DNA of 64,000 nucleotides from Nostoc sp. DedSLP01 (GTDB lineage: Bacteria > Cyanobacteriota > Cyanobacteriia > Cyanobacteriales > Nostocaceae). Positions 30,650-36,217 of this stretch are shown one piece after another. The stretch's first letter is position 1, and each line of letters starts with the position of its first letter. The notes beneath the pieces were generated by a model that was not told the DNA's origin, made no database searches, and was given only the letters and a program-made list of their open reading frames with translations. The stretch covers positions 96,001 to 160,000 of the forward strand of contig JAVRCJ020000014.1 in assembly GCA_034530875.2 (NCBI GenBank), read 5' to 3'. The position numbers were made by a program, and so were the translations under genes.

Positions 30650-30677
30650 TTTAGTGCTGAGTTTCGGTAGCGATTAA

Positions 30678-30713
30678 CCCCTTTCCGGTGGCGGAGAGGG
30701 GTAATGTTTTTTT
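30678..30713 (+). terminator. Rho-independent terminator of ndhCKJ
   Basis: CCCCTTTCCG-gtgg-CGGAGAGGGG stem followed by a T-rich tail. Confidence 0.65.
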
Positions 30714-30817
30714 AACGCAAAGGGGCGCAAAGGGAAGCGCGGAGGGGCGCAAAGGAGGTGCGTTGTTGCAAAAGCTCAACGCATGTGGAAGGATGCAATT
30801 ACAGTTTTGTCTTTTCG

Positions 30818-31510
30818 CTACTTTGAAGGCTTACTCAATGCTTTAACAAGCTCATCTTTTTTCATTTTAGTGATGCCAGTAATTCCTTGTTTTTTTGCCA
30901 TCGCTTTTAGATCGGCTGTTGTCATTGTTTTGAGAATACCGATATCAGTAGTTGTATCTGGCATTGGCTGAGGAGTTAGATAAAACACTTGATTTAAAGC
31001 ATCAAGTTTTTTACCTTTGGTAATGCCACACTTCAGATCGACAATTGGATCTAATGTCTTCCAATATTGACGAGGAGCTTCATCTATTCGGTTTGTAGCT
31101 ATAGCAGGTTTAACTGTTTTGAGAACACTATCTGGTTGCTTGACTAAATACTCTAATGCTGCTTTGATTTCATCCCTAGATGCCTTAGAAAGATTGATTT
31201 TTGGAATTTCTTCTCCTGCCAATACTTTTGTGACTTCAACTGTCTCATCACTACCATCGGTAATAATGCACCAAACACGATTTAAGCGAGCTGCTTCTGC
31301 AATTGCATAAATGAAAGAGTTACCAATTACTTGATATTTATCTTTACCAGTTTCTTTCACAATTACTGGAATCCAATTTCTTCCCCCCTTTTGCTTGAGT
31401 AAATTAGCTGAAGCTTTAATTAAAAATTCAGGTGCATCAGTTCCTTCACCAGGGTCAATTTCATCCAAATATAAATGCATCAAGTTTCCAATATCGCTGA
31501 GGCTACTCAT
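30818..31510 (-). CDS. ParB/Srx-like N-terminal domain protein with a C-terminal Rho_N-like helical domain
   Basis: NWIPVIVKE...YQVIGNSFIYAIA......VWCII resembles the ParB-N fold but lacks GxxRxxA; C-terminal MTTADLKAMAKKQGITGITKMKKDELVKAL is Rho_N-like; ATGA overlap with the upstream gene. Confidence 0.7.
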   Translation of the reverse strand: MSSLSDIGNLMHLYLDEIDPGEGTDAPEFLIKASANLLKQKGGRNWIPVIVKETGKDKYQVIGNSFIYAIAEAARLNRVWCIITDGSDETVEVTKVLAGEEIPKINLSKASRDEIKAALEYLVKQPDSVLKTVKPAIATNRIDEAPRQYWKTLDPIVDLKCGITKGKKLDALNQVFYLTPQPMPDTTTDIGILKTMTTADLKAMAKKQGITGITKMKKDELVKALSKPSK

Positions 31511-32844
31511 TGTAAAAAATACTCCTTTGCTAAATTTTTGTAATATTCATGAGCAGATTGATCTCGATAAACCGCAGGAATACGCGAGAAAGCTGAACCA
31601 GCTATGTTAGCGTAGCTTGGAACCTCATGAATACGAAGATCTCTGTTGGCATTAGTATACTTGGGATAGAAGTAAGCCAGTAAATCAAATCCCTCTTTTT
31701 TAGCAGTTTTAAGAATGTTATTAATTTCTTTTTGAGCAACTTCCAGCTGGAATGGTGTAATCTTTTCTCCATTGAAAAAAATCGGTAATGGAATGGGGCT
31801 ACCATCAGCTTTTTGAGATTGAACTTCAGGAATGAATTTCTTCATTGCTATTGCTGCATTTTCTAAAGAGAAAAGATTGTTATGCTTTGTGGGAATGAGA
31901 ACGACATCAGCCGCATATACAGCTAGCTGGCTAAATACTCGCCAGTTAGGTGGCGCATCTATCAAAATATAGTCGTATTCTTGTCTTAAAAATTCTAACT
32001 TGTCATAAAGAGTATGAGATTTCAAGTTATTACGCAAAAGATTTTCAGGTGCATCTGTCAGTTCTAAATCGGCAGGAATAATATCAAATCTAAGTTCTGA
32101 ATTAACCTTCCTTAGAGGAAATTTATAAGGATGTATAGTATTTTGAAGTTCTATACCTCGTTCTCTAAGAGCCTCAAATACACTACCTTTACTTAATGGA
32201 AGACCTAAAGCACTTGTTAAATCTTGTTGGTTAGGATCGAAATCTATCGCTAAAACCTTTTTCCCTAAAAAAGTTAAAATAGCTGCTAAATTGACGGTAG
32301 TTGTAGTTTTACCTACTCCACCTTTGTTGTTATAAACTGCAATGGTTAAAGCTTTAGCGGGATTTTCAATTTTTTTCCGAATTGAAGCAACTACCTTATC
32401 AATATTACCTGCATCAAGTGTAAGACATTGTGTTGCGGGATAAATCACTTTTCCATGCTTACGAAACAGTTGAATATGGCAAGAATTAGTAATAATCCCC
32501 CACTGTACTGTTTTGCAATTAGGTGCAAGTAGATAATTTTTTAGTTGTTTAACTGTTTTTTGATACTGTGCAGCATCTTCAGATAAGTTAATATCTCTTC
32601 CCTTCAACTCCAGCAGAAGGTATGGATTTGATTTTGTATGTAAAAAGATATCATCTCCAATAGTTTTCCTCGCTGCTTTATCAACAGCTCCGTCGCCAGT
32701 GTTATATTGCGGATGAATTTCTTCATATTCAAACCCTAATACTTTCAACAAGTGAGGAGCAAAAAGGTCGTTTACAACAGCTTCGGGTGCATTTTCGGGC
32801 AGGCTTTGTACGGCTGCTCGAAGACTAATAATTGTCATGCTCAT
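31507..32844 (-). CDS. Fusion of an HsdR-N-like PD-(D/E)xK nuclease domain and a ParA/Soj ATPase
   Basis: N-half: E..V...F...LL..LGF, VD, LLELK, QLKNY, WGIITN; C-half: deviant Walker A KGGVGKTT, IDFDPNQ, YDYILIDAPP. Confidence 0.82.
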   Translation of the reverse strand: MSMTIISLRAAVQSLPENAPEAVVNDLFAPHLLKVLGFEYEEIHPQYNTGDGAVDKAARKTIGDDIFLHTKSNPYLLLELKGRDINLSEDAAQYQKTVKQLKNYLLAPNCKTVQWGIITNSCHIQLFRKHGKVIYPATQCLTLDAGNIDKVVASIRKKIENPAKALTIAVYNNKGGVGKTTTTVNLAAILTFLGKKVLAIDFDPNQQDLTSALGLPLSKGSVFEALRERGIELQNTIHPYKFPLRKVNSELRFDIIPADLELTDAPENLLRNNLKSHTLYDKLEFLRQEYDYILIDAPPNWRVFSQLAVYAADVVLIPTKHNNLFSLENAAIAMKKFIPEVQSQKADGSPIPLPIFFNGEKITPFQLEVAQKEINNILKTAKKEGFDLLAYFYPKYTNANRDLRIHEVPSYANIAGSAFSRIPAVYRDQSAHEYYKNLAKEYFLQ

Positions 32845-35312: not shown

Positions 35313-35522
35313 ATGGCTAACGAGAAAAAAAGAATAACAGTCAGTTTGACTCAGGAAGCGATCGATAAATTGAAGGAACTTGCCCAGCAAAGAGGAATAA
35401 CAGCTACAGCAGTTTTAAATCAAGCTATTGCCACTGAAGATTTTCTCGCCAAGGAATCTAAAGATGGAAAAGTTTTGATCCGGAAAAATGATGGCACAAT
35501 TAAAGAAGTTATTTTTAGATAA
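35313..35522 (+). CDS. Ribbon-helix-helix (CopG-like) DNA-binding protein
   Basis: KRITVSL...DKLKELA...GITATAVLNQAI RHH pattern; AAGGA RBS. Confidence 0.8.
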   Translation: MANEKKRITVSLTQEAIDKLKELAQQRGITATAVLNQAIATEDFLAKESKDGKVLIRKNDGTIKEVIFR

Positions 35523-35791
35523 CAATAGACATCGCTAAAACTTCTAATCCCCTCATTGTTCCCGTCTTTAAACCTGAATTTGCCCTACGTGAAAGCAGTT
35601 TCTTTGAATAGCTATGTAGGTTAAAAAATTGCATAGAGTTTCCCAAGAGAGGGGAGAATTGGCAAGCTCTCCTCTTAATTATATGTTTTCTAATTTTCTT
35701 TACATTATTTATTGTGCCAAACCTGACAAAATTATTGAATATAAGCTAAAAATTAAATTTCTAGCACATCGACTTATTTTAGAAAATTCAA

Positions 35792-36217
35792 ATGCCATCG
35801 GATAATTCTAATTCAAAACCCATTGATATTGAAGATATTGATAAAGAAACGGGTACAGCAAATAACGATAACCCCGACCCTAAAACCCCTCATCTAACTA
35901 ACTTTAATCCTGCTCGGATACAAGAATTGATTCGGAGCTTGATTAGTATAGTAATATTTCTTAATACTTCTTTAATTATACTTTTAGTAATGACTTTTAT
36001 CTTACATCCTATTATTTTTAATAAAGAGAAGGAGGGCAATGATTCTAATAAAAATATTATAAATTTAGGCGATAAAACATTTATTTATGTTGTTAAAGAC
36101 GAGGATGAAAATAAAGGTAGTAGAGAATTAATTAACTTACTTTGGACATCACAGATAACTTTAATTAGCGGTACTATCGCATTTTATTTTGCCAGTCAGA
36201 ACATTTCCAAAAATTAA
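35792..36217 (+). CDS. AT-rich hypothetical two-TM membrane protein
   Basis: Hydrophobic segments LISIVIFL...LLVMTFIL and LLWTSQITLISGTIAFYF. Confidence 0.65.
   Translation: MPSDNSNSKPIDIEDIDKETGTANNDNPDPKTPHLTNFNPARIQELIRSLISIVIFLNTSLIILLVMTFILHPIIFNKEKEGNDSNKNIINLGDKTFIYVVKDEDENKGSRELINLLWTSQITLISGTIAFYFASQNISKN

Follow-up and report, generated by a model that had tools for sequence, protein, structure and literature searches.

The window analysed here, a stretch of 64,000 nucleotides from Nostoc sp. DedSLP01, carries on its minus strand a compact unit of two genes, which converges on the end of a gene that we take from its sequence to be ndhJ (the name ndhK at this locus was assigned in the same way). 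Gene 1 (31507..32844) encodes a protein of 445 aa comprising a restriction-type nuclease domain and a ParA ATPase, while gene 2 (30818..31510) encodes a protein of 230 aa with a degenerate ParB domain, a helix-hairpin-helix (HhH) domain and a Rho-N tail; both assignments are based on the open reading frame, the Pfam matches and a structural model. As described in the first-pass annotation of this DNA, the stop codon of gene 1 and the start codon of gene 2 overlap in the tetranucleotide ATGA (31507..31510, minus strand). The nearest named relatives come from Nostoc, at 89–92% identity. Outside of the unit, 3' of ndhJ, there is a terminator-like stem-loop (30677..30702, plus strand), identified only as a consensus match in a scan that returned one terminator-like match versus 2.1 expected in shuffled sequences; it forms the boundary of a variable slot, and the genus-level matches stop nearby. 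The AT-richness of the unit and its lack of HIP1 sites, both pointed out earlier, are genuine and carry weak weight: the GC content of 36.1% (40.9% in the genome) falls into the 9th percentile, and when the genome is cut into 4174 tiles of equal length to the unit, 660 are likewise free of HIP1. A foreign origin deduced from these two features was accordingly rejected as weak. The repeat cluster reported upstream of the unit does exist, but it represents a dispersed genomic repeat with about 12–15 blastn matches in the genome, and was therefore rejected as a component of the system. A general scan of the locus for repeats revealed only short two-copy matches and no parS candidate standing out near the operon, and a promoter scan of the locus returned fewer sites than were found in shuffled sequences. 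Elsewhere in the window, an AT-rich island (35313-36217, GC about 0.29-0.35) encodes a 69-aa ribbon-helix-helix protein and a 141-aa membrane-like protein.

The N-terminal domain of gene 1 (aa 4–163; 32356..32835, minus strand) was matched by the Pfam family HSDR_N_2 over aa 21–129 with an E-value of 6.6e-5 and a score of 23.4 bits, just below the cut-off of 25 (25.7 bits in a second search). In the AlphaFold model of the protein (pLDDT 91.9) this domain indeed exhibits the PD-(D/E)xK fold, with the type IIG endonuclease BpuSI as a structural match (Z 12.7, rmsd 3.3, 144 residues aligned). When solved structures were searched by sequence with the nuclease profile, only weak, unrelated matches over a short stretch emerged, which were rejected as chance, and Foldseek carried out for the gene 1 model identified ParA-family chains only, among the matches listed. 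The remaining part of the protein (aa 164–445; 31510..32355, minus strand) is a ParA domain, recognized by Pfam AAA_31/ParA over aa 167–343 (E 1.4e-35) and by the match of aa 163–445 of the model to the ParA structure 8ray (Z 28.4, rmsd 2.5). The previous suggestion that an HsdR-N-type nuclease is joined here to a complete ParA is thus borne out by both profile and structure comparisons.

The alignment of gene 1 comprised 75 proteins: to the query were added 74 full-length ORFs out of the best 80 of 87 loci, and six loci were omitted because their ORFs were cut or split. In the nuclease domain D55, E79, K81 and Q100 are invariant in all 75 proteins, whereas 73 proteins retain E21 and Y104, so that the catalytic residues are conserved across homologs; D55, E79-x-K81 and Q100-x3-Y104 presumably correspond to the motifs of the PD-(D/E)xK superfamily. 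The ATPase motifs (K174-G-G-V-G-K179, D201-x-D203, D291...D296 and N358) are equally complete, with K174, K179, D201, D203, D291, D296 and N358 invariant in 75 of 75 sequences. The dN/dS ratio of the nuclease domain ranges from 0.16 to 0.23 in six pairwise comparisons, indicating purifying selection. Since the catalytic residues are near-invariant and the domain is under purifying selection, the N-terminal domain of gene 1 is most likely an active nuclease, as far as can be predicted from the sequence. The two arginines that in Soj presumably serve non-specific DNA binding are, judged by eye, not kept in gene 1. With respect to the ConB1-clade motifs given in a recent preprint (10.64898/2026.10.19.760177), N173 and V177 of gene 1 fit, V being common in ParA proteins generally, and the Q following the DxD motif is displaced by one residue.

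The model of gene 2 (pLDDT 91.5) exhibits three domains. Residues 5–103 (31202..31498, minus strand) adopt the ParB/Srx fold, with PadC (Z 11.1, rmsd 2.7, 94 residues aligned) and KorB (Z 10.5) as structural matches. Residues 103–180 (30971..31204, minus strand) form a ComEA-like HhH domain, for which the match to ComEA 8dss (Z 6.5, rmsd 2.2, 61 residues aligned) reaches a middling score and that to 2duy a Z of 6.2; Pfam returned no match when searched with this stretch alone. Residues 188–230 (30821..30949, minus strand) constitute a Rho-N (helix-extended-helix) tail, identified by Pfam Rho_N (E 4.3e-9) and by comparison of the model with Rho 1a62 (Z 7.0), and containing 10 K/R versus 4 D/E residues. 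The ParB fold and the Rho_N tail had been recognized before, but the HhH domain between them had been missed. The notion that the ParB-N-like domain has lost the CTP-binding arginine patch holds for the aligned partners too: Box II GxxR is absent, with an Arg at positions 63–70 in 0 of 69 aligned partners. Box II and the LG-R/K-GL ParA-binding motif are defined in 10.1101/2025.10.10.680097; the latter motif is also absent, the N-terminal consensus of the partners being L-S-D-I-G-N-L, which contains no basic residue. Nor does gene 2 possess any domain of the helix-turn-helix (HTH) type, as its model past residue 103 is fully covered by the HhH and Rho-N matches. The lack of the Box II arginine in all 69 partners argues against CTP binding. 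The HhH domain is the most conserved part, with dN/dS values of 0.06-0.11, similar to those of ndhJ/ndhK (0.05-0.16). Degenerate ParB domains of this type occur also at the C-terminus of unrelated proteins of 330-930 aa (P0163, P0172, P0177, P0179, P0183 and similar ones).

The two genes are tightly linked. Among the best 80 of 87 loci gene 2 is found directly downstream of gene 1 in 78, and in the two loci without a partner the contig ends inside gene 1; likewise, in the phylum sample a partner match is present in 28 of 30 loci, the other two being located at contig ends. No neighbor family is conserved across the same best 80 of 87 loci. The nuclease profile matches 53 of 301 genomes in the phylum sample, gene 2 is matched in 34 of 121 genomes of the family sample (strongly in 29), and 17 of 60 genomes of the genus sample have a match, these samples being possibly overlapping and their counts not additive. 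A patchy distribution was among the things that the annotation had proposed to look for, and the pair is not universally syntenic either: the ndh region is present in all 60 genus genomes, and the pair adjoins it in only 3. One further genome of the genus retains a remnant of 256 bases at the ndh site, another carries a close copy elsewhere, and no match to the pair was found in G150, whose ndh region is the most similar of all (96%). The slot 3' of the ndhJ terminator (window positions 30650-30820; L171-L186) is variable in the genus, its interchangeable contents including Pepco with caspase-FGE, GmrSD, pentapeptide genes and an AAA_35 pair. In 16 of the 57 other ndhJ sites, sampled for slot content, the genes nearest to ndhJ were Pepco together with a caspase protein three times, GmrSD, an AAA_35 pair, an FGE-domain protein and the above remnant once each, ordinary genes six times and unassigned genes three times.

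A quick tree of the 75 sequences splits those from heterocyst-formers into two supported groups, with the group of the window nested among Leptolyngbya-, Oculatella- and Aliterella-type sequences. A single clade of heterocyst-formers was rejected (p-AU 1.9e-7) for a constrained group of 28 sequences that was chosen after the tree had been viewed, and old paralogy could yield the same rejection. Gene 1 matches 3 of 72,556 plasmid records at E 1e-20; on each of these three plasmids a further gene of the ParM or ParA type lies less than 8 kb away, and integrase genes adjoin the unit on two of them. The search of a phage collection with the nuclease domain gave no match at E 0.01. A distant subtype (~53% identity) exhibits two tandem ParB-like matches, i.e. 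two partners following ParA (genomes G131, G148, G172, G147, G174, G164, G126, G143 and G178).

The first-pass annotation considered the system to be undescribed, which is not supported, since its architecture has been named in the preprint of Li, Burroughs and Aravind of 22 October 2026 (10.64898/2026.10.19.760177), whose section 15 deals with the 'effector-ParAB system'. According to that section, ParA and ParB are coupled, a variable effector, most commonly an REase, directly precedes ParA, the ParB is predicted to be inactive, and HhH or Rho-N replaces its HTH domain; the systems are said to be enriched in multicellular bacteria, e.g. cyanobacteria. All four structural features of that description are found in the pair of the window: operonic coupling (a 4-base overlap, adjacency in 78 of the best 80 of 87 loci), an REase domain N-terminal to ParA (HSDR_N_2, BpuSI Z 12.7), a ParB predicted to be inactive (fold Z 11.1, arginine at 63–70 in 0/69) and HhH/Rho-N-type modules instead of HTH (ComEA-like Z 6.5, Rho-N Z 7.0). 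Thus, the unit is a further member of a class already described by computation. It is set apart from the text of section 15 by the presence of both HhH and Rho-N in tandem, whereas the text treats them as alternatives. The same section suggests that the ParB may perhaps still bind nucleotide and clamp DNA; for the subfamily of the window, such a nucleotide-dependent clamp is argued against by a Box II devoid of arginine in 69 of 69 partners. The authors assign these systems to immunity as a computational prediction, their section offering a model and no experiment, and our literature searches found no experiment on any member.

With the ParABS systems (Soj/Spo0J, and PadC and KorB as relatives in fold) the pair shares the ParA fold and motifs, the ParB-CTPase fold and the gene order. 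It differs from them by the nuclease head on ParA, by its patchy and mobile occurrence, and by a partner without GxxR, LG-R/K-GL and HTH. With the N-terminal domain of type I HsdR and the corresponding domain of the type IIG enzyme BpuSI it shares the PD-(D/E)xK fold; unlike in type I and type IIG restriction-modification, the ATPase is ParA. The neighbors of the best 80 of 87 loci include no conserved gene for a methyltransferase, specificity or helicase function, and Pfam detects neither a methylase nor a specificity function in the two proteins, in agreement with the earlier statement that the unit lacks one.

Whether the unit lies among defense genes was assessed with PADLOC, which, consulted as the annotation had proposed, has no model for it; in PADLOC and NCBIfam neither protein scored above the cut-off, and only Walker A matches were obtained. 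PADLOC matches were found in 8 of 118 nearest flanking genes versus 3 of 118 genes located more than 6 kb away (118 drawn from 242), and of the eight, two are full-length Uma2-like PDC-S03 and the rest are partial. The matches being mostly partial or incidental, the proposed enrichment in defense islands is not clearly seen. Moreover, the steady purifying selection, with the HhH domain as the proposed sensor and at the same time the most conserved part, is not the pattern of an arms race. The idea that the par module has been repurposed for conflict is backed by the conservation, coupling, patchiness and mobility of the pair and with the same conclusion in the preprint, but the defense function is still a prediction.

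Taken together, we consider it probable that the unit is an accessory, horizontally moving system directed against invaders such as plasmids, phages or integrative elements, its ATPase-nuclease being gated by the DNA-binding partner. The partner would bind DNA with little sequence specificity via its HhH and Rho-N modules, and its ParB fold may serve solely as a docking surface for ParA. Because the basic ParA-stimulating motif is missing, the partner is more likely to hold or position ParA than to drive a partition cycle. ParA dimerizes on ATP, and ATP-dependent dimerization could bring two nuclease heads together on DNA and thereby lead to cutting. The target may be invading DNA or, if all else fails, the chromosome of the host. 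Should the unit restrict plasmids, it could be one of the barriers that limit the transfer of genes into filamentous cyanobacteria, and it would illustrate in what way a nuclease gated by ATP distinguishes foreign DNA from that of its host when no methylase is involved.

The translational coupling and the near-obligate linkage of the genes, together with the integrase genes beside two of the three plasmid copies, would also suit a selfish module of the toxin-antitoxin type, in which the nuclease-ParA protein is toxic unless restrained by the partner, the unit persists by killing the cells that lose it, and defense is a side effect. The pattern of decay is relevant here. Of the 29 genomes of the family sample in which gene 2 is strongly matched, 22 appear to retain both genes whole, 5 combine a full-length gene 2 with a gene 1 that is broken or was not found, and 2 show damage in both; decayed pieces of gene 1 alone occur in two family genomes, and in a single one, G062, gene 1 is whole (452 aa, with the acidic and lysine residues of the motif) and no partner was found. 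This pattern leans towards a partner that restrains the nuclease, as read from the sequences, and is not decisive: gene 1 is twice as long as gene 2, and 5 versus 1 is therefore not far from chance. Since G062 carries a nuclease-ParA for which no partner was found and the unit is often lost, we regard addiction as unlikely. The lone gene of G062 (L153:4835-6193) adjoins a KilA-N/Bro-N gene, in what appears to be a mobile element.

A different reading denies immunity altogether: cyanobacteria without a canonical ParB would use interchangeable pairs of nuclease-ParA and CTP-independent ParB/HhH proteins on their own chromosomes, where an ATP-gated, positioned nuclease would trim, resolve or remove chromosome copies, for instance in polyploid or differentiating cells. 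The genome leaves room for such a housekeeping role, as the only matches of Pfam ParB_N in the draft, which is 99.8% complete, are a sulfiredoxin-like ORF and the partner of a second pair, neither of them a canonical ParB. Including that of the window, there are three pairs of ParA and degenerate ParB in total. The second (contig C11, L002:452-2544) comprises a 455-aa nuclease-ParA with HSDR_N matches and 29% identity to gene 1, overlapping the gene of a 242-aa degenerate ParB protein with a weak HhH match. The third (contig C4, L006:163-1668) comprises a 322-aa ParA that lacks the nuclease head and, downstream of it, a 178-aa protein with an HhH match that resembles the ParB domain of gene 2 (hhalign 70%), and is an effector-less version. 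Matches to the partner of the C11 type occur in 44 of the 60 genomes of the genus, their identities (34-85%) falling into separate bands, and this, with the purifying selection and the ordinary neighbors, would be in line with a nucleoid function. Against it, 11 of the 60 genus genomes, several of them near-complete, are matched by neither the window's nor the C11 partner, and a twelfth has a remnant only; in addition, the site varies among close kin and broken copies are common. We therefore hold a role on the host chromosome to be doubtful. Were it true, it would reveal a partition-derived nuclease with a housekeeping or developmental role and overturn the immunity prediction made for these systems in section 15 of 10.64898/2026.10.19.760177.

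That the unit is simply a partition cassette of plasmids, be it ordinary or decayed, with a non-catalytic, DNA-binding head, as the parA-parB order, the three plasmid copies and the intact ParA motifs might suggest, is very improbable, given the near-invariant catalytic residues of the nuclease, the partner without Box II Arg and HTH, the other partition-type ATPases already borne by those plasmids and the small number of matching plasmid records.

Even with its architecture in print, the unit is a good test case for the anti-invader role that we favor, because it is compact, offers clear residues for mutagenesis (D55, E79, K81 and K179) and is present in some natural strains at a site where others lack it. 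A further locus of the genome, on contig C9 (L003:1474-2777), encodes a 295-aa ParA directly followed by a 139-aa protein, a layout that resembles the ParA-HeH systems described in the same preprint.
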